From positions 81,468,001 through 81,532,000 of the forward strand of contig OX597827.1 of assembly GCA_951406725.2 (NCBI GenBank): a stretch of DNA of 64,000 nucleotides, read 5' to 3'. The notes under the pieces were generated by a model that saw only the letters and a list, made by a program, of their open reading frames with translations, made no database searches and was not told where the DNA came from. This DNA comes from Octopus vulgaris (lineage: Eukaryota). Below, one piece after another: positions 1,860-44,100 of this stretch (the stretch's first letter is position 1; every line of letters begins with the position of its first letter). A program made the translations under genes and the position numbers.

Positions 1860-2351
1860 CAACAAAACTTTTATATCTTGGACACACACACATTATATAT
1901 ATAGAGATATGTATATATAAGTGTATATATATATGTGTGTGTGTGTGTGTGTATAAATATGTATGTATATATATATGTATACACACACACATGCATATAC
2001 ACACAAACACACACACATATGTACAGTTGAAGGTAAATAAATATGTGTAGGGGGTCCATAGACTTTCCTGTATGATGACTACTAATGTGAACTAACAATG
2101 GCTAACGTGGCAGATAATTTTAATGTCAAGCTTTTTCCTTTTCTTGCAGATCAATCTGATGTCTACATGATGTTTACCTGATGTCCACTTAATGTCCACT
2201 TGGTATCTATTATTCTTCCCACTTTATTATACCTAATACCTTTCAACATTATGCCTTCAATATCATCATTCTGGGAGAGACCACTGCTGTTCCTTTTGTT
2301 CCAGTTACCATATATGGAATTACATGTCTCAGTGTTGTACTAAGCAAAGTG

Positions 2352-4777
2352 ATGGAAGGAGGAATGCCAGGTCGACAGTTGATCATTCAAATAAATATTT
2401 TGGTTGCATTACTACACTCCTGCATTTCAATTAACCTCGAGTACCATGTCGATGAAGAAAGTAGTCCCCAAACATTTATTGGAGATGTTGCTGCTGATGC
2501 CATGCTTGGTGACAGTGGATCTCTGACAGACAGAGATCTACTAACATATAACCAACTTCAGCGAGAATGGATGGAAAGTTCCCAGTTGTTCAATGTCACT
2601 AAAGATGGTAAATTGTACACGGCACACACAATTGATGCTGAGTCTCTGTGCAACCGAGGAAACAATGTTTCAAATACATTAAAATAGCTGTAAACAAGGC
2701 CAAGTCTTTTATGAAGATTCTGAAAGTCAAAGTAATTATAGAAGACATTAACGATCACAGCCCTGAGTTTCCTCAGAAACAAATAAATGTTACGTATGAT
2801 GAAGATGATGGAGAAGGAGCCGAAAGATTAATTCCAGATGCCATTGACAAAGATGTTGGAATGGAAAACTCAGAAATTACATATAAATTGAAGAAACAAT
2901 TTAACGACCCATTTATATTGTCTGTGAGAAAAACCATCACAGGAAGAGCAAAGATAGGAATTGTTCTTGGAGACAAACTAGACAGAGAAATCAAAGATAG
3001 TTACAATCTAGAAGTGATAGCTAATGATGGAGGGCAACCTTCAAAACAAGGAATTCTACATGTTCATATTAAAATAAATGATGTGAATGATAACTCACCA
3101 GTTTTTTCAAAACATATTTACAATATTTCCATCAAAAATACACATCCTAACAACAACCCTATTTTGACATTGTCTGCAAAAGACCCAGATTCTGGCAATA
3201 ATGGTAAAGTGTCTTATTATTTCAGTTCAGAAACACCAGACAAAGCTAAAAAATGTTATATTTTAAAAAAACATTCCGGAAAACTGTTTATCACAGAAAA
3301 TTTCTCAAAAGAGAGAGATCGCATTTATGAATTATATGTGGAGGCCAAAGATGGAGGGAATCCATCCTTAAATTCCTTTGCCATTGTACGGGTGAATGTT
3401 CTCAATGAAAAGAACCATCCTCCCAAAATAGAGATCCATTTTGTGTCTGAATTGAAGAAGGACACTGCAGCTATTTACGAAGGAACTAAAGTGGGCAGTT
3501 ATCTAGCTTATGTGAATGTGGTGGACAACGATGTTGGAGCAAATGGAGAAGTGAGTTGTAAATTAGAACATGATAAGGTTGTCTTCTTACATTTAGGATC
3601 AAAGGAATACAAGATTACTCTGAAGAAACCACTTGACAGAGAAAAATTAGACCATTTTAACATGAGAATTGTGTGTGAAGACAATGGAAGCCCTGCTTTA
3701 AAGACGGAGAGAAAGATCTCAATCCAAGTAATGGATGTGAACGATGTGCAACCGCAATTTACCAAAGATACATTCCACTTCCTCACCTATGAGAATGGTA
3801 AAGCAAACTTTCCTATAGGTTTTATCAATGCCACTGACCCAGACCTGGCAAGTGCTGGTCAACTGACGTTCTCACTGTTGAGTAAAGACAGAAATAACAT
3901 ACCGTTCCAGGTTAGTGATTATGGTTTTATTACCAGCAACATACCATTGGACAGAGAAGAAGAAGACATGTATAAGTTTGAGGTTTTTGTCAAAGACAAT
4001 GGTAAACCGTCGTTGAATAACACAGCGAATGTTGTTGTTGAGGTTTTAGACAGAAACGACAATAATCCGTATTTCATCTACCCTACAACTGACCCTTTCC
4101 ATATCAATGTCCACTACCATCCGCAAAGTACCAATGCCATCACTGTGATTAGAGCGTCTGACAGAGACAGTCATTTAAATGCGTTCCTCAAATATGGAAT
4201 ACTTGACGGTAACAATAAACGCTTGTTTACACTCAACTCTTTAACTGGTCAAATGTCTTTCTCGCGTGCACCTCATCTCAACGATGCTGGCTCATACGAA
4301 CTGGTGCTTGTGGTCAAGGATTCTGGAAACCCAGTGTTGTCAGCCACAACTACTGTGTCTTTGTCATTAAGGGTCACTAACAAGACATCAGCACCGATGC
4401 CGACTGTCCACTTAGAGAAGAACAGAACACTGGACGTACCATTATTGATTATCCTTGTAGTAGCAGCTGTAATAGTAGCTGTGGTGATTGTAGTGTCGAT
4501 CACACTGTGTATTGTGAAATGTAGCAGTGGTCAGTCTCGCTCTGCCAAGAGCACTAGGAAAGGTGTTAATAGGTCAGCTATATGTAACAGAATTGATCAA
4601 CCTTTACCGTGTCAGAGCAGCAGTATTCCTGGTACCCCAGTGAGGTACTCTTCTGAGATGAATAATAGAAACATGCCATTTGTGGAATGTAAGGAAGATT
4701 TCTACCCGCAGTATGAATCTCAGATTGATTGGTCAAACGTGGGTTCCTTGGAGAAGAGTCCACCCAATACAATATTG
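2352..4777 (+). CDS. Protocadherin copy A, large exon (signal peptide, 6 cadherin repeats, TM, cytoplasmic part), interrupted by a 1-nt deletion at ~2652
   Basis: ORF 2349-2687 (signal peptide, FIGDVAAD) joins ORF 2648-4795 (DINDHSPEF, LDRE, DVNDNSPVF, AxDxD motifs, hydrophobic TM). Acceptor ctttttccttttcttgcag ends at 2149; donor TTG|GTAAGT at 4777/4778 is phase 0. TGCAACCG here versus TGCAAACCG in copy B. Confidence 0.9.
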
Positions 4778-4908
4778 GTAAGTTGCATTATATAATCTTT
4801 CTATCTGTCTATTTATCTATCTATATGTCTCTGTGTTTATCTGTCTGTCTATCCATGTAACTTTCTATATGTCTATTATTTTATATTATATATGTGTGAA
4901 TAATAATA

Positions 4909-7907: not shown

Positions 7908-8175
7908 TATAAAGTATATGCAGTAATGTACAAATGTCTGGAAAGCGAATAATGTATGAGTCAGATACATGCTTGCGTGTGTATGGAGGGGAGAAAATCA
8001 GGTGTAGTGTTGGCAAATCTCAGGAAGCATGGAAGTTTTGAAGGATGCAGTACTCCGACAACTAACAACTGATGCTGGCAGTTTGTTCCATGCTTCAGCA
8101 ACTCTTAGTGTGAAAAAATGTTTCCAAAAGTCATGGGAGCTGTGCTGTTTTCTGACTTTGTAAACATGTCCATGG

Positions 8176-8179
<4 letters not shown>
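7908..8179 (-). repeat. Direct duplicate of a LINE 3' segment
   Basis: Near-identical to ~8302-8573; ends abruptly in a (TA)n run. Confidence 0.85.
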
Positions 8180-8239: not shown

Positions 8240-9930
8240 GTAATAATAATGAAATTATTGTATACAGTGCTCAGGTGCACCACAACTTGTCAGACAGTGC
8301 GTATAAAGTATATGCAGTAATGTACAAATGTCTGGAAAGCGAATAATGTATGAGTCAGATACATGCTGGCGTGTGTATGGAGGGGAGAAAATCAGGTGTA
8401 GTGTTGGCGAATCTCAGGAAGCATGGAAGTTTTGAAGGATGCAGTGCTCCGACAACTAACAACTGATGCTGGCAGTTTGTTCCATGCTTCAGCAACTCTT
8501 AGTGTGAAAAAATGTTTCCAAAAGTCATGGGAGCTGTGCTGTTTTCTGACTTTGTAAACATGTCCATGGGTGTTAGACAGGTGGAGTTTGAAAAGGTGCT
8601 CAGAGTTATTGTTTGTAAGATGGTTAATAATTTTATGGGTGTCTGCCAAGTCAGCTGCCAGACGTCGGAGTTTCAGTGTATCGATGCCCAGGGAAGTAAA
8701 GCGTTCAGAATATGGCAAATGCCTGATGGAGGGTATTCTTTTGGTTGTACGTCGCTGAGCGGCTTCCAGACGATTAATATCCTGGGCAAGATAGGGGTTC
8801 CAGACCGGTGATGCAAATTCCAGGTGAGGTCTTACCATAGCTATATAAAGCCACAGATAGATAGCCAGAGAGCGGCTCACAAAGGACTTGGTGAGTGATG
8901 CCAAGACACCCTCAGCCTTCTTGACAATTTTAGCGATGTGTTTTGTCCAACGCAAATCGCTGTCGACAATAACACCCAGGTCACGTTCACACGAAGACTT
9001 TTTGAGATTAGTGTTGTGGAGGGAGTAAGTGGATGCTGGGTTTCTCCTCCCAAAATGCATGGTGGTACATTTGTCCACAGCCAGCTTGAGTTGCCAGTCC
9101 ATGATCCACTGCTGCATTGTGTCCAGGTCTGCTTGCAATAGAGATCTATAGTGTACAGGATCTGACCTCTTTATTTCGCAGTACAGCTTGATGTCATCTG
9201 CATATTTCAGCACTGTGGCATTCTTTAAGTTGGCATCTATGTCATTAACATATGCAACAAATAAAAGGGGGCCAAGAACAAGATCCCTATAGTACACCAG
9301 ATGTCATCTCATAGGGCGAAGAGTGCTGTCCTAGAACTATGACAACCACTTTTTGGCAGATAATGAAGGACTTCAACCAGTTATAGAGATCGTCTCTTAC
9401 ACCTATTGCAGAGAGTTTCACCATAAGTCTTTTGTGTGGCACAGAATTAAAAGCCTTAGCAAAGTCCAGGTAAACAACATCCACCCAGGATCTGCGATCA
9501 GTGATTTGGGTAATGTCCTCAAGAAACTTGATGAGTTGATTACAGCAGCTGGAGTTAGGAATAAAACCAAATTGTTATGGCTGGATGAGGCTGTGAGACT
9601 TCCAGAAGTTCCAGAGAGTTTCCCTGACACAGGATCCCATCAGTTTGGTGATGCAGCTAGTAAGATTAACAGGGCGATAGTTGACAGGTGATGTGAGGTC
9701 ACCTTTTTTGAACAGAGGGATAACACTGGCAGTTTTCCACTGCTCTGGAGTAACACCATTGTCAAGACAGAATTGGAAGAATAGAGAAAGTTGGCTTAGA
9801 AGAAAGTACCCACCGTGTTTGAGAAGTAGGTATGTAACACCATCGAGACCAGGAGAGGCATAGTTGTGTTTATTCTTAAGTTGGCATTGTAGCATTGCTG
9901 GTGTAAATTGCATAGTAGATATAGAGTTTG
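8240..9930 (-). mobile_element. 5'-truncated CR1/L2-type LINE, reverse transcriptase ORF2 broken by frameshifts
   Basis: ORFs 9575-9913 (SPGLDG, VIPLFKKGD, NYRPVNLTS), 9287-9484 (VYLDFAKAFNSVPH) and 8392-9297 (LGPLLF, YADDIKLY, RDLGV, VRPHLEF); (TTA)n tail at ~8240. Confidence 0.92.
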
Positions 9931-10748: not shown

Positions 10749-10886
10749 GGGAGATGTACTCGCATAGCAAGTAATTTGATCTGAGATCGTGTGCTGAAAC
10801 GAAAACAATTGCAGCGTGGAAGGTGTTTGTAAGCCATTTAAGAAACACACAAAAGCCGTTCGATTCACTTCACCATTTAAGTTTAA

Positions 10887-10936
10887 TTTGTCAAAATATT
10901 TTCGTCGCTAAAATCCGCGACCTGTTCACTGACAAA
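10887..10936 (-). ncRNA. Minimal type I hammerhead ribozyme-like motif, G3-C8 core variant
   Basis: Minus strand reads UUUGUCA GUGAACA G GUCGC-ggauuuua-GCGAC GAAA AUAU UU UGACAAA: 7-bp stem I, 5-bp stem II, palindromic stem III. Confidence 0.6.
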
Positions 10937-11151
10937 AATCCGTGCTGCATCTGAGAAAGTAACAGTTAGTTCGTCCATGGTGTTATACACACACATACAT
11001 ATATACATACATACATGCATACACAGGCGTATGTACGTACATGCACACATACATACATACATGCATACATATGTGTATGCATACATACACACATACATAC
11101 GTACATATATATGATGAACTAACTGTTACTTTCTCAGATGCAGCACGGATT

Positions 11152-11201
11152 TTTGTCAGTGAACAGGTCGCGGATTTTAGCAACGAAAATATTTTGACAA
11201 A
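11152..11201 (+). ncRNA. Second copy of the G3-C8 hammerhead-like motif
   Basis: tttgtca gtgaaca g gtcgc ggatttta gcaac gaaa atat tt tgacaaa; one C-A mismatch in stem II. Confidence 0.55.
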
Positions 11202-12786
11202 TTAAACTTAAATGGTGAAGTGAATCTAACGGCTTTTGTGTGTTTCTTAAATGGCTTACAAACACCTTCCACGCTGCAATTGTTATATATATATATGTGT
11301 GTGTATATATATATATATATATACATACATATACATATATACATACATATAAATATACACACACACACACGCACACACACACACACACAGAAAGATGCAG
11401 GCATGGTTGAATGGTAAAACGTTTGCTTCTCAACCATATGGCTTTGAGTTCAGTTCCAGCAAGATCTTCCAATCCAGCCAATCAATGCCTTGTGAGTGAA
11501 TTTGGTGAATTTGGTTGGCTGTGACAGAACAAATGATGTTGCAGATTTATATACTTGTGTTTATCAGGTGTGTTTGTCCCCATCACCACTTAACTGGTGT
11601 TGGTTTGTTGACAGCCCTGTGACTTAATAGTTTGCACAAAAAGAGCCTTGTAGAATGAGTACTATTCATGGTAGTGCCCCAGCATGGCCAGAGTTCAATG
11701 ATTGAAAGAAGTAAAAGATAAAAAATATATAACACAATAAGCTCCATCTAAGCCATGCAAACTTGGAAAAGAGGATGTTACAATGACGATGATGAGGATG
11801 ATGCTGATGACGACGACAACAGAGATGAGGATGACGATGATGACAAGGATGAGAACAATGATGAGATGACAACGAGGATGATGATAATAAAAACGATGAC
11901 AGCAAGGATGACGATGACGGCAATGATGATGATGGTGGTGATGATGATTATTTGGAACCTGGTTCCCTAGTTACAGTGACCCTGTGTCAGTGACCAGGTC
12001 ACAGTTATATAATGAAAATTTTGACACTTCATGAAATACTTTCAATCTAAAGTGAATTCATCTTCTTTGCTGTCTTACGCAATGTCTCTCCAAGAGTTTT
12101 GTTGCTTCGGTCTTGAAACGCATGGCCTCAGATCAACTCACTTGATAGACAAGCACAACTCTGAAATTTTAATTAACTTTTTCTTTTTAATTAAAAAAAT
12201 AAAAATAAAATTAATTAGTTAAAATATTTTTTAAAAGTTTTAATTAATTTTTCATTAATTCAAAAATTTTGGTGTGATGGGGACAGAATCTGAGTCTTTG
12301 ATATTCAAAACATGAAGTAACAAAAAAGGTCAGAATAAGGTTGATGAAATACATAGAAAACCAAACAAGTGTCAACCTCTCACTGCCTCTTTGCTCCTCT
12401 CTCTCTCTTTCTCTATTGCTTGCATCACTCCATGTCTTCTATTTGCAAATCATTCTCTCTTCCTATGAGCATATTCTCTCTCTCACTCTTTTTCTATCTC
12501 TCTCTCTGTCACACACACAGAGTCAAAAGGTGAGAGCTAGAAATATTCAGTATAGGAAACATGTAGTAGTGCCCTGAAGTGTTTACTGTGTAAAGAGTAG
12601 CCATGAAAGAAATCCAGGTGAGATGATATGGAGACAGCAATGCTAATATAAACACGATATATATGAAAACATACAAATACCCATATAGATACACACACAC
12701 ACACACATGTCGATAGATATATATACATACATACATACATACATATAATGAAATATATGATAAACACAAACACACACATATATATG

Positions 12787-20177: not shown

Positions 20178-20201
20178 TTACCCACCCGAATCAAGAAATA
20201 A
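20178..20201 (+). CDS. Predicted terminal coding micro-exon of protocadherin A (LPTRIKK*)
   Basis: Pyrimidine tract ttctatcttcttatcttccag followed by TTA CCC ACC CGA ATC AAG AAA TAA. Phase 0 matches the donor at 4777, it is paralogous to 35859-35882, and AATAAA lies at 20311. Confidence 0.75.
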   Translation, partial: LPTRIKK

Positions 20202-21497: not shown

Positions 21498-21530
<33 letters not shown>

Positions 21531-21551
21531 ATTATGGATGGAAAAATGGAG
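21103..21551 (+). promoter_or_regulatory. Candidate promoter and 5' leader exon of protocadherin B, ending in uORF start MDGKME and a splice donor
   Basis: TATAAA at 21103, unique CpG-containing sequence, ATG GAT GGA AAA ATG GAG|GTAAGT at 21534-21551, and homology to 39922-40028. The start site is a guess. Confidence 0.55.
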
Positions 21552-29670: not shown

Positions 29671-29919
29671 AAGATATTACATATTTAATATTATGCGTAA
29701 CACGACTTTATATCACTCTCATTGCATCGTCCTAGCCATGCTAGCATGGAAAGCGGACGTTGAACGATGATGATGATATAACATATTACATATTACGCAG
29801 GACCTATTTACATGATGTATATTTAGTGTGTCATTGTTTATCTGACTATTTATTCCACTATCAACTGTACATTATTATATTTCAGGGGCCAGAGCTGTGA
29901 AGTGATCTGAAAACTAGGG

Positions 29920-32340
29920 ATGGAAACAAGGGAAACGCAATTGTTCTTTCTTCTTAGTATCTTCGCTCTGTTCTGGCAAAGCACTGTGTGTGAAGATATT
30001 GTATATTATTTGAAAGATGAAGACATTACAGGAACATTTATTGGAGATGTTGCAGCTGATTCCCTCGTCTTGGAGAATATGGAATCACATGAGCAGACGT
30101 CCATTATATTTAATCAAATACAGCACCGAAGAACAGATAGTTCCAAGGTGTTCAATGTCACTAAAGATGGTAAATTGTACACGGCACACACAATCGATGC
30201 CGAGTCTCTGTGCAAACCGAGGAAACAATGTTTCAAATACATTAAAATAGCTGTAAACAAGGCCAAGTCTTTTATGAAGATTCTGAAAGTCAAAGTAATT
30301 ATAGAAGACATTAACGATCACAGCCCTGAGTTTCCTCAGAAACAAATAAATGTTACATATGATGAAGATGATGGAGAAGGAGCCGAAAGATTAATTCCAG
30401 ATGCCATTGACAGAGATGTTGGAATGGAAAACTCAGAAATTACATATAAATTGAAGAAACAATTTAACGACCCATTTATATTGTCTGTGAGAAAAACCAT
30501 CACAGGAAGAGCAAAGATAGGAATTGTTCTTGGAGACAAACTAGACAGAGAGATACAAGATAGTTACAATCTAGAAGTGATAGCTAAAGATGGAGGGCAA
30601 CCTTCAAAACAAGGAATTCTACATGTTCATATTAAAATAAATGATGTAAACGATAACTCACCAGTTTTTTCAAAACATATTTACAATATTTCCATCAAAA
30701 ATACACATCCTAACAACAACCCCATTTTGACATTGTCTGCAAAAGACCCAGATTCTGGCAATAATGGTAAAGTGTCTTATTATTTCAGTTCAGAAACACC
30801 AGACAAAGCTAAAAAATGTTATACATTGAAAAGAGAGTCTGGCAAATTGTTTATCACAGAAAATTTCTCAAAAGAGAGAGATCGCATTTATGAATTATAT
30901 GTCGAGGCCAAAGATGGAGGGAATCCATCCTTAAATTCCTTTGCCATTGTACGGGTGAATGTTCTCAATGAAAAGAACCATGCTCCTGAAATTGATATAA
31001 ATTTTGTGTCTGAATTGAAGAAGGGCACTGCAGCTATTTACGAAGGGACAAAAGTGGGCAGTTATCTAGCTTATGTGAATGTGGTGGACAACGATGTTGG
31101 AGCAAATGGAGAAGTGAGTTGTAAATTAGAACATGATAAAGTTGTCCTCTCACATTTAGGATCAAAGGAATACAAGATTACTCTGAAGAAACCACTTGAC
31201 AGAGAAAAATTAGACCATTTTAACATGAGAATTGTGTGTGAAGACAATGGAAGCCCTGCTTTAAAGACGGAGAGAAAGATCTCAATCCAAGTAATGGATG
31301 TGAACGATGTGCAACCGCAATTTACCAAAGATACATTCCACTTCCTCACCTATGAGAATGGTAAAGCAAACTTTCCTATAGGTTTTATCAATGCCACTGA
31401 CCCAGACCTGGCAAGTGCTGGTCAACTGACGTTCTCACTGTTGAGTAAAGACAGAAATAACATACCGTTCCAGGTGAGTGATTATGGTTTTATTACCAGC
31501 AACATACCATTGGACAGAGAAGAAGAAGACATGTATAAGTTTGAGGTTTTTGTCAAAGACAATGGTAAACCGTCGTTGAATAACACAGCGAATGTTGTTG
31601 TTGAGGTTTTAGACAGAAACGACAATAATCCGTATTTCATCTACCCTACAACTGACCCTTTCCATATCAATGTCCACTACCACCCGCAAAGTACCAATGC
31701 CATCACTGTGATCAGAGCGTCTGACAGAGACAGTCATTTAAATGCGTTCCTCAAATATGGAATACTTGACGGTAACAATAAACGCTTGTTTACACTCAAC
31801 TCTTTAACTGGTCAAATGTCTTTCTCGCGTGCACCTCATCTCAACGATGCTGGCTCATACGAACTGGTGCTTGTGGTCAAGGATTCTGGAAGCCCAGTGA
31901 TGTCAGCCACAACTACTGTGTCTTTGTCATTAAGGGTCACTAACAAGACATCAGCACCGATGCCGACTGTCCACTTAGAGAAGAACAGAACACTGGACGT
32001 ACCATTATTGATTATCCTTGTAGTAGCAGCTGTAATAGTATCTGTGGTGATTGTAGTGTCGATCACACTGTGTATTATGAAATGTAGCAGTGGTCAGTCT
32101 CGCTCTGCCAAGAACACTAGGAAAGGTGTTAATAGGTCAGCTATATGTAACAGAATTGATCAACCTTTACCGTGTCAGAGCAGCAGTATTCCTGGTACCC
32201 CAGTGAGGTACTCTTCAGAGATGAATAATAGAAACATGCCATTTGTGGAATGTAAGGAAGATTTCTACCCGCAGTATGAATCTCAGATTGATTGGTCAAA
32301 CGTGGGTACCCTGGAGAAGAGTCCACCCACCACAATATTG
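29920..32340 (+). CDS. Protocadherin copy B, intact large exon (807 codons: signal peptide, 6 cadherin repeats, TM, cytoplasmic part)
   Basis: ORF 29920-32370 carries all cadherin motifs. Acceptor tttcag ends at 29885; donor TTG|GTAAGT at 32340/32341, so the last ORF residues (VSCIIYYIV) are probably intronic. Confidence 0.95.
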
Positions 32341-34589
32341 GTAAGTTGCATTATATATTATATAGTATAATTTAATGTATATTTATGTAAACCTGTGTAT
32401 ATGTCTGTATGTGAGTGTGTACATGTGTGTGTGTGTGTATGTGTGTGTATAAATGATAAAAAGTCAGGAGATATGTGAGATGAATATATTTAACCACTTG
32501 ACATCGTTATTGTTACAGTTATTTTTATATAGTGCACCTTAAATTATATTTTATGAATATTAATATTTCCAGAATTGGGTCAACAGGTTTTCACTGTATC
32601 CTGTGTTTTCCTTTATTTGTATTTTTAAGTAGTCATTTGTGAAGGCTTTAGGGGTCTCTGTTCCTGGAATCTGTTTCAGCTTGAGGTGATGTGTCTAGAT
32701 TGCACATCGGTTACAATTTCAGCAGGTTAAGATAGTGTTATTGCCTGCCAAAGGATAAGCTTTGTTGCAGATGGTGGCAAGTGCAACAGGAAATGCATGA
32801 ATAACACAACTGAGTTTTGTGGTTTAGCAAAGTAGATGGGATGTCAGTGGAAAGAAATCAGAGTTATATGTTGTACTGGTATCATGTTTATGTGATGAGG
32901 AATATGTATAAGCTGTGATCATCTAATCAGGTAGGACCCTTCTCGTCTATGACATCATTGCCAGGAGCCCATAAGGGAGTTCCATAGCAGTCACTGTTAA
33001 ATCACTGATTCCACCAAGGTAGAGGCTCTGGTGAAGGACATAGAAACCAAGTTCCAGTAGATAGGCCATTAGACCTGGCCCTCCGGAAACTGTACTGTGG
33101 GAGCATTAGTGAGTGAGATAGGAAATAGGTCCCAGTAGATCTGGCTATACAAGATGTAACCTGAGGTTTTAGTAAAAAGGGAGAGGATTCTAAGTTTTTG
33201 ATGAAGACCAAACACCTGTTTTAACAAGCTGGGCATTGTTTTGGAGTCTTTTTTTGTCAAAAACCAACTGAATATCCTTAGATATACTCAACCACCATGC
33301 ATTCTTCATTACCCTCAGTTTCTCTCTGCAAAGCAGATTTCTGGTATTTTATTAAATTCTCCGTCTTCAAATGTTCATTTTTAGATGAATTAAGATTGAA
33401 CAGTCTATGGTGTGATTTATCATTGATATCTCAGAGGTCAGATATTTCTGAGTTATTTTCATTGAGCCAATCTTTGTGTTTGTGTGTCCTGAATCCTAAG
33501 AAATTGGCAACAGTGGCATAAATATTTAATATGAAGCATGACCATGAACACTCATTAGGCGATGAATGCTTTAGAACTTTAAGAAAAGATGCAGATATTG
33601 CTGGCTCTCAGTGTTTGCCAACATTCTGGAAGCTTCTTACTATTTCTAAAGACTTTCCTAACAACTTCAGTTTTGTTCCTATTTGATAGGGATTCATTTG
33701 ACATGCAGCCCTACACATTAATTTAACATTCTATAGAGATCACCAATGCCATGTTTACATGTTGTGACTAAATCAATGAGATGACTCATTCAGACTGAAA
33801 ATGTGTCCAAATAATTTTATGCCGGAGATTCTTGTGGATGCATATTGCCAAGTCCAGCAAGCTCCATGTCAAACCATTCAACCCATGCTAGCACGGAAAC
33901 CAGACATTAAACAATGTTGGTGATGAGGATGATGATGATGATGATGAGGGCCTGTATGGAACATAACTGTTGCTGTTGGTGAAGATCACTGCTATTGAGT
34001 TTGCCTACACCAAAGAGTCCAAAGCTGAACCACAAAATACAGTCATATTTTATAATTAAAATCACCAGTTATGTTGCTTCAGTGTTGAAACAATGGCATT
34101 TCTAAGGTTGTCATAAAAAAGAAATAAGTGCTTAGTCACTACAGCCACAGCTAGTTTCTTCAGCAATTACTTTGCAGAGGCCCTTTCAGATGTGGCACAT
34201 GTTATGATGGAGATTTATGAGAAACTGTTAGCTTTGTAATCTGTCTTGTCCTGTGTTTGTTATATAAAACTATATTTTGTTCGTATATTCGTTATTCTGC
34301 TCATGCAGTGCCATGGCAAAGCAATGTATAGTTTTCACACTGTCCCTCTATACTTCAGACTAATTGATTTGATCTTGTTTTGAAAGTGACACGAGTACAT
34401 AAGACTGACAAGCCACAAGTGGTGAAGCACGAACCTGTCGCTCTTTCATTTGCCTCTGGAGCAATTTCCTTTTTCCAAGCTCTAAGATATATTGTGTCTT
34501 TCAATACAATACATATAGAGAGTTTTCCATGACAAAATCTGCAGCTTCTAGCATTTCAACGGTACGCATACATTAAGTATTATTATATA

Positions 34590-35858: not shown

Positions 35859-35882
35859 TTACCAACTCGAATCAAAAGATAA
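35859..35882 (+). CDS. Predicted terminal coding micro-exon of protocadherin B (LPTRIKR*)
   Basis: tttttctctttctctttcag followed by TTA CCA ACT CGA ATC AAA AGA TAA. Phase 0 matches the donor at 32340; paralogue of 20178-20201. Confidence 0.78.
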   Translation, partial: LPTRIKR

Positions 35883-43195: not shown

Positions 43196-44100
43196 AGATG
43201 ACCTCACAGCTGAACCCATCTGACCCAACTCTACAAATCTTATATTCTCAAATGTGTTTCCTACACCTTTATTTAGGGAACATTGCAGCTGACTTCTCAC
43301 TAAGCAATAATGTTGAGTTCCAGGGTTCAAATCATGGTACATCTCACCAATTTCACCATCAACATGGACAGACACATCACACCCTTCCTTGCTCAATGAA
43401 ACAGTATTATGAACTCAGCCCCACCTCCCCACCTCATGCTTTTGTGCCTCACTTCCATCTCTTAAAAACAACATTAATGCTTTAAATAAATATGTCACTA
43501 AAACTTGGAAGCTGTGTGCTGATCAGAGGAGGTTTTGGGACAACCTTCCTCTCCCCTGTCTGTGCATTTAAAGGAGATTTCTTTTTTCCACTGTGGTCAA
43601 GGATTCTGGTAGCCCAGTGTTGTCAGCCACAACTACTGTGTCTTTGTCATTAAGGGTCACTAACAAGACATCAGCACCGATGCCGACTGTCCACTTAGAG
43701 AAGAACAGAACACTGGACGTACTATTATTGATTATCCTTGTAGTAGCAGCTGTAATAGTAGCTGTGGTGATTGTAGTGTCGATCACACTGTGTATTGTGA
43801 AATGTAGCAGTGGTCAGTCTCGCTCTGCCAAGAGCACTAGGAAAGGTGTTAATAGGTCAGCTATATGTAACAGAATTGATCAACCTTTACCATGTCAGAG
43901 CAGCAGTATTCCTGGTACCCCAGTGAGGTACTCTTCTGAGATGAATAATAGAAACATGCCATTTGTGGAATGTAAGGAAGATTTCTACCCGCAGTTTGAA
44001 ACACAACATGTGCCCTGCAAGAAAAGATATCTAGTTGTGACAGAGGTCAATGTAGGCTAACACAGGTATGCCAGAAGAAAAGAGACCCAGTTATGACAGA
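43196..44100 (+). pseudogene. Protocadherin copy C pseudogene: eroded EC1 remnants joined to a 409-bp near-exact copy of the EC6-end/TM/tail segment
   Basis: Acceptor tttctttttttccag ends at 43195; YLGNIAAD at ~43270; VTKTWKLCA at ~43494 (cf. VTKDGKLYT). 43592-44000 matches 4309-4717 with 5 differences by eye. EC2-EC5 are absent. Confidence 0.8.

Follow-up and report, generated by a model that had tools for sequence, protein, structure and literature searches.

A homogenised tract between two tandem octopus protocadherin genes: probable origin by repeated gene conversion and co-varying residues at predicted binding contacts

The window analysed here, a stretch of 64,000 nucleotides from Octopus vulgaris, contains Pcdh A and Pcdh B, the final two of 12 complete tandem protocadherin genes on C14. 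The pair have the make-up of protocadherins: a Pfam Cadherin_2 match, five Cadherin stretches and a match for a sixth repeat, one transmembrane segment (TM) and one large exon. The best structural matches are protocadherin EC1-4, at about 30% identity to solved vertebrate chains, and a cluster search at 50% found only long cadherins among the 150 matches listed. The features of the window are these.

2150..4777, plus strand: Pcdh A large exon (signal peptide, EC1-EC6, TM and most of the tail), with an AG acceptor before 2150 where a spliced contig starts, ATG at 2352 and a GT donor at 4778.
2352..2586, plus strand: signal peptide and EC1 strands A-C private to A, a sister group of the ten paralogues upstream (tree support 99/94) and single copy in the genome search.
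2568..2570, plus strand: W71 (B numbering), the candidate EC1 switch residue of A, from the residue co-variation comparison.
2587..4794, plus strand: A copy of the homogenised tract, the likely recipient, from pairwise alignment and trees.
2651..2652, plus strand: 1-bp deletion in A relative to B, a frameshift in the assembly, from pairwise alignment.
3261..3284, plus strand: gap 1 in the tract, in EC3, with 9 mismatches (I302T, K305R, H306E), from the alignment; K305R and H306E are also found in O. sinensis.
3419..3437, plus strand: gap 2 in the tract, in the EC3/EC4 linker and first EC4 strand, with 7 mismatches (A K357; B E357/D359), from the alignment.
20178..20201, plus strand: A terminal coding exon (LPTRIKK, stop), from a sequence search; the public A model ends with it.
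21528..21551, plus strand: 3' end of a non-coding upstream exon of B; loose ends of contigs X4 and X20 match before its GTAAGT donor.
29886..32340, plus strand: Pcdh B large exon, ATG at 29920.
29920..30148, plus strand: signal peptide and EC1 strands A-C private to B, with R71 (30130-30132); they group with the B gene of O. bimaculoides and with Argonauta P0002 (98/96).
30149..32357, plus strand: B copy of the homogenised tract, the likely donor, with R197 (30508-30510), E292 (30793-30795) and E357 (30988-30990).
35859..35882, plus strand: B terminal coding exon (LPTRIKR, stop), matched by spliced loose ends at 32340 in X2, X4 and X20.
43592..44000, plus strand: isolated 409-nt third copy (end of EC6, TM and tail), with 4-9 mismatches to the 12 paralogues.

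The link between the A large exon and its terminal exon at 20178..20201 is that of the public model rather than of a joining contig. In the assembly, A is without one A behind 2651, which shifts the frame and gives a stop at about 2686, a point overlooked in the original prediction. The missing base is present in the A-allele contig X1 record 1 and the O. sinensis A model is in frame; the deletion is probably a consensus error. Only the X1 contig counts here, because the X5 contig has B alleles and the X20 contig starts at the fork between the two genes; DNA run X17 has no piece across the site. The public A model, P0056, begins downstream of the indel and has probably been shortened by this error. 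That A is a pseudogene is disfavoured by the extra A in the X1 contig and the in-frame O. sinensis model, a null allele in this individual being possible. Further frameshifted protocadherin exons are found in the assembly at L003, L004 and L027, that of L004 being a 1-nt gap in a run of A.

The non-coding upstream exons of B (21528-21551) and A (L041:8375) have a common 12-nt motif with an ATG a short way before the donor, which may mark a short upstream ORF that has been conserved. The A intron contains a 271-nt direct repeat of 99% identity (7908-8178 and 8302-8572) and, at 8390-9117, what is presumably a reverse-transcriptase-like LINE fragment from the look of its ORF. There is also a 98% inverted repeat (10804-10975 and 11113-11284). 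The isolated copy downstream of B is 98-99% identical to the family; one O. sinensis model ends inside it, and its flanks are present in contigs X2, X4, X5 and X20, from two organisms. Faint EC1-like remnants lie upstream of it at about 43270-43310 and 43494-43526, weakly suggesting that the flank is a decayed gene (best E about 0.001 in a tiny search).

Pairwise alignment places the A/B tract from 2587/30149 to 4794/32357, the end being 17 nt beyond the GT donor at 4778/32341 and thus in the intron, exactly as originally predicted. The tract has 47 substitutions and one indel in its 2,209 nt, which is 97.8% identity, and is found with E=0 in a self-BLAST of the window. Its 730 codons include 24 synonymous and 20 non-synonymous differences, the latter agreeing with the earlier count of about 20 amino-acid differences. 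Outside the tract, identity is 40% in the signal peptide, 58% in EC1 residues 27-76, 35% in the 5' flank and 42% in the intron; the start had indeed been described as highly diverged and the introns and UTRs as unalignable. Synonymous sites differ at 31.6/45.3 upstream, about 70%, versus 28/467 within the tract, the last figure being slightly high since the underlying alignment puts the indel in the wrong place. High identity that includes synonymous sites, with old divergence on either side, is a mark of gene conversion and is what the A/B tract shows, the downstream divergence being that of the intron and terminal exon.

The tract is not uniform. Of its 47 mismatches, nine are packed into a single 30-nt window (the random maximum is 3.7; p=0.0005), and seven more form another cluster at 3419-3437. 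The bulk of the tract is also common to the ten further paralogues upstream of the window, and the sites at which A equals B and differs from all ten are clustered in EC1 residues 77-138 and mid-EC3. Rather than the one sharp 2.2-kb event first proposed, it is a patchwork of array-wide and A/B-specific blocks, with mismatch clusters inside.

An assembly collapse or polishing chimera could also produce such a tract, and base errors do exist in this assembly: the 1-bp deletion in A is absent from contigs and the exons at L003, L004 and L027 are frameshifted. The contig check, made on contigs only, covered four runs for A and four for B, seven different runs of 24, and the RNA nature of those giving spliced contigs is a guess. 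X1 record 1 (1,896 nt, spliced at 2150) crosses the A breakpoint with 7 differences from A; an A-type contig of equal length has 29 differences from B. The fork at 2616/30178, where both starts meet, is also the point at which contigs stop in DNA runs X17 and X18 and in X20, which is from a second organism. X4 contigs with mixed A/B alleles were left out, contigs being prone to merge variants. Independently, an O. sinensis model has the A start fused in frame to a B-type second half of EC1, and O. bimaculoides P0007 has the same junction before the model breaks off. The junction-spanning spliced contig, the contigs that break at the fork and the models from two other species make an artefact extremely improbable. 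Pcdh A is a chimera, with its start from the side of the ten upstream genes, its body from that of B, and the same junction in three species.

The homogenisation extends through the array. Downstream of every one of the 12 large exons lies a private LPTRIK(K/R)-stop exon, which rules out shared constant exons in the style of vertebrate alpha and gamma clusters. Among the ten upstream genes identity is 100% in the signal peptide, 96% in EC1, 92% in EC2, 96% in EC3, 97% in EC4 and 99-100% from EC5 to the tail, and their introns are mostly unalignable. In L003-L012 the homogeneity reaches the splice acceptor region about 60 nt before the ATG and then stops, so that it is exon-limited at both ends. 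A and B are 96-100% identical to the ten from EC4 onward, 91% in EC2, 81% in EC3 and 75% in the second half of EC1. A four-gamete clustering test, used in place of GENECONV, found 3,213 of 4,656 informative site pairs in the ten genes to be incompatible, with significant clustering (p=0.0005). Argonauta has the same array, with six genes of the type of the ten, one B-type and none of A-type among its seven, homogenised within the species; its EC4 is 98-100% identical among its own 7 genes and 76-78% identical to that of B.

For 14 genes from a second sub-array, EC4-TM is 99-100% identical, EC2/EC3 average 73-74% and EC1 is 95-100% identical within groups. A survey of 48 genes, a sample of the family, gave 223 pairs with EC5 at least 95% identical, pairs that are not independent of each other. 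Of these, similar EC1 with diverged EC2-3 is seen in 47 and the reverse in 2; another 50 are alike over their whole length, and 124 belong to neither class. The arrays therefore have the vertebrate pattern, EC2/EC3 being the most variable and the membrane-proximal half homogenised, from which the A/B pair itself departs. The second reversed pair, L013/L014, shares a 1.7-kb tract of 99% identity with both ends inside coding sequence; its EC1 is fully diverged and its EC4 99% identical, with no compensating gap. L051:1460-3190 and L052 (C14 81.577 and 81.671 Mb, genes 94 kb apart) show a second conversion tract, about 1.7 kb long with 99% identity; it begins in EC2, its end lies within the cytoplasmic tail, and the flanks are old, alignable and 55-67% identical. 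Domain-sized exchanges are also seen among genes otherwise 60-76% identical, including L082/L083 (EC1 100%), L016/L082/L083 (EC5 99%), and L070/L083 and L084/L085 (EC4 94-97%).

Per-domain trees, suggested as a check in the original prediction, are incongruent across the 5' border, A switching from the ten to B. They have 25 and 23 rows, include four of the ten upstream genes, and are based on proteins only, with the groupings read from support values rather than a formal clade test. For the first half of EC1, A and its O. bimaculoides orthologue (which differs at 7 of 79 residues of the A-private start) form the sister group of the ten (99/94); Argonauta P0002 is the partner of B (98/96). For EC2-EC3, A groups with B (93/88) and O. 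bimaculoides B is next; from the two trees together, B is the likely donor. Such incongruence, together with paralogues grouping by species, is what gene conversion leaves behind, and both are present on the protein trees and at species-specific residues. Residue 91 is T in both O. vulgaris genes and K in both O. bimaculoides genes. N241, D295 and K299 are common to O. vulgaris A and B and absent from O. bimaculoides B, Argonauta P0002 and the 8 upstream genes aligned. Over residues 78-399, O. vulgaris and O. bimaculoides B differ at 20 sites, one of which borders a gap in the model, and at 15 of the 20 A agrees with O. vulgaris B; therefore the copying has been recurrent.

Both loci are old, having their own diverged terminal exons and orthologues in O. 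bimaculoides, so that the proposed conversion between old paralogues stands. That it was recent is half right: O. bimaculoides already has the junction, and the tract was renewed afterwards. Repeated DNA-level gene conversion from B to A very likely explains the tract, and double crossovers may be an alternative to non-reciprocal transfer. A cDNA template is disfavoured, as the match continues through 17 nt of intron and 6/24 nt are different between the terminal exons. Genome searches, whose results are lower bounds, found no close donor elsewhere in the genome for the private start of A or of B. A single unequal crossing-over or duplication that fused a start like that of the ten to a copy of B, with no ongoing conversion, would account for one sharp 5' junction kept in three species. 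However, two borders are required, because identity stops 17 nt into the intron and the A intron and terminal exon differ from those of B. The paralogues also have species-specific residues in common, and the 5' border has shifted by a few codons between species, residue 82 being Q in O. bimaculoides A and the ten, and K in O. vulgaris A and B. A single fusion is therefore very unlikely.

The gap at the first EC4 strand coincides with residues that co-vary. K305R, H306E, P355A, K357E and the difference at 359 also separate A from B in O. sinensis, although A has E359/H361 in O. vulgaris and G359/N361 in O. sinensis. In the ten upstream genes, a block of 10 SNPs at EC1 residues 67-78 and one of 4 SNPs at 356-359 have an identical 4/6 partition, with 49 of the 57 informative sites between them incompatible with it. 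W71 occurs with K357 and R71 with E357 in 12/12 O. vulgaris and 7/7 Argonauta genes (19/19). Likewise, R197 occurs with E292 and G197 with K292 in 11/12 and 7/7 (18/19), the exception being L004. The two pairs of residues assort independently (p=0.66), all four combinations being found in both Octopus and Argonauta. In an O. sinensis fused model, 5/5 of the units showing both motifs are concordant. A and B have the same EC2:EC3 pair and differ in the EC1 71/EC4 357 pair, the latter at a tract gap.

These pairs were noticed post hoc, EC1/EC4 in O. vulgaris and EC2/EC3 in Argonauta, and then checked in the other species, in 7 or 12 genes. The genes are related, the flanks grouping the ten into about seven units, so Fisher p-values are too small, and O. 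sinensis is close to O. vulgaris. In an AlphaFold model (pLDDT 86), residue 71 is past EC1 strand 3 in a low-confidence loop and 357/359 are at the start of EC4, and 197 and 292 are in the EC2 beta4-beta5 and EC3 beta3-beta4 loops. From cadherin topology, 71/357 and 197/292 are presumably distant within a chain and opposite one another in an antiparallel dimer. Counted from a conserved NxP motif just beyond the printed alignment, the equivalents of B359/B361 in mouse alpha7 are 322/324, and residue 71 is several residues past alpha7 36/38, in the low-confidence loop. The co-variation fits the predicted geometry of an antiparallel EC1-4 trans dimer.

It is possible to combine these observations in one explanation. 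Ectopic conversion would copy B into A from mid-EC1 onward, repeatedly, and would stall where identity is already too low, that is in the introns and the diverged first half of EC1, which would make the borders sharp. The proteins would form vertebrate-style antiparallel trans dimers through EC1:EC4 and EC2:EC3. A conversion that altered one half of a pair alone would break self-binding and be purged, which may be the reason for the gap at the first EC4 strand. Selection would be likely to keep the few A/B differences at the predicted binding contacts. It would then be mainly EC1:EC4 that distinguishes A (W71/K357) from B (R71/E357), the EC2:EC3 pair being common to both, a reading for which the chances are fairly good. 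The explanation as a whole, of A as a chimera made by repeated B-to-A conversion with likely selection on predicted contacts, is considered probable on the comparative sequence evidence. A wider proposal, that conversion shuffles ancient two-state EC1:EC4 and EC2:EC3 modules in an octopod recognition code while selection keeps the halves matched, could equally be right or wrong. That A differs from B essentially by one switch, the gapped tract being a footprint of selection, would be part of this module shuffling, and the joint proposition is evenly poised.

Neutral concerted evolution, with the EC1 start having escaped by drift, the gaps and co-variation reflecting shared ancestry, and A and B being redundant cross-binders, offers a different account. 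The isolated 409-nt copy lies outside any intact gene and is nevertheless 98-99% identical, so homogeneity is possible without selection on protein. L013/L014 combine diverged EC1 with the same EC4, and the tract borders are in conserved motifs. Background linkage is also above chance: distant blocks have a common partition in 8/904 cases, and for 4/6 splits in 2/37 versus 0.18 expected. However, both allele pairs have stayed matched in Octopus and Argonauta despite turnover of EC4 (76-78% identical), the sites between the blocks are scrambled (49/57), the charges complement each other and the positions are those of known contacts. The neutral account is considered unlikely.

The original prediction also took the variable EC1 as a hint of a different specificity code. 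The two reversed pairs, A/B and L013/L014, do spare EC1 and share EC2-EC3, and one of the switch elements would be an EC1 loop. Against this, 47 versus 2 of the 223 pairs have the opposite, vertebrate-like pattern, EC1 is 96% identical among the ten, with EC2 the most variable domain (92%), and it is 95-100% identical within groups of the second sub-array. The mature N-terminus is without Trp2, the residue used by classical cadherins in EC1 swapping. As in vertebrates, the EC1 element goes together with EC4. A cluster-wide EC1-variable code finds no support here, and an EC1-based octopus code unlike that of vertebrates is highly improbable. What survives of the hint is an EC1 element, different in A and B, whose state follows that of EC4; the geometry is the vertebrate EC1:EC4 one (PMC5106212) and no different code.

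The preferred explanation, conversion with likely selection at predicted contacts, has consequences beyond this pair. At the sequence level, the matched residues would point to the vertebrate head-to-tail geometry in an expansion of separate origin, and they single out the positions for a swap. A and B form a natural test pair that has 20 differences beyond the first half of EC1. Distances taken over whole genes make the array genes look younger than they are, the array being present in Argonauta, which bears on published expansion dates of 8-14 Ma. If the evenly balanced wider proposal were true, octopod neuronal recognition codes would be built from ancient interface modules shuffled by conversion among complete genes.

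Regional conversion that spares EC2/EC3 is established in vertebrates, in fugu (PMC1852091), in Xenopus and mouse (PMC4978886), and by Noonan 2004 as cited in PMC4978886. In octopus, homogenisation by conversion has been suggested from whole-gene trees (PMC9068888, PMC6339937); this much was already known. The 'recent burst' of PMC9795677 is dated from pairwise distances, and its main text does not contain the word 'conversion'. Cephalopod protocadherins with their own terminal exons are described in PMC9068888, which makes no functional claim for them, and the cephalopod and vertebrate expansions are reported as convergent (PMC9068888, PMC4978886). The coleoid chromosome-14 sub-arrays are likewise tandem full-gene duplicates (PMC9068888, PMC6339937, PMC9795677). 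Domain-level conversion, interface co-variation and binding data for cephalopod protocadherins were not found in the literature searched. To the published accounts of chromosome 14 the present analysis adds breakpoints, a domain-level map, the likely donor direction and the co-varying residues at the predicted interface, the 71/357 and 197/292 co-variation common to Octopus and Argonauta appearing to be new.

These arrays resemble the vertebrate clustered protocadherins in their near-identical sequence from EC4/5 to the tail, discrete borders, low dS and EC2/EC3 as the most variable domains. They differ from them in being an independent expansion of complete genes with private terminal exons and no shared constant exons. 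Vertebrate beta genes are likewise without constant exons. EC1 of the mouse alpha genes is 96% identical (Table 1, PMC4978886), comparable to the ten genes and the second sub-array. In the A/B pair it is EC2-EC3 that is homogenised and the first half of EC1 that is spared, the reverse of the usual vertebrate outcome. In the EC1:EC4 pair of mouse Pcdh alpha7/alpha8, swapping 36/38 and 322/324 of alpha7 swaps specificity (PMC5106212). For vertebrate dimers PMC5001838 describes contact between the EC2 beta4-beta5 loop and an EC3 Phe-X10-Phe, and argues that EC1:EC4 sets affinity rather than specificity. The octopus pairs are like alpha7/alpha8 in the matching first-strand EC4 positions (322/324 versus 359/361), the same EC2/EC3 loops and the complementary charges, with the EC1 partner a few residues beyond alpha7 36/38. 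Unlike those of the mouse, they appear as two-state elements reassorted among paralogues and common to Octopus and Argonauta, their contacts being predicted from sequence.
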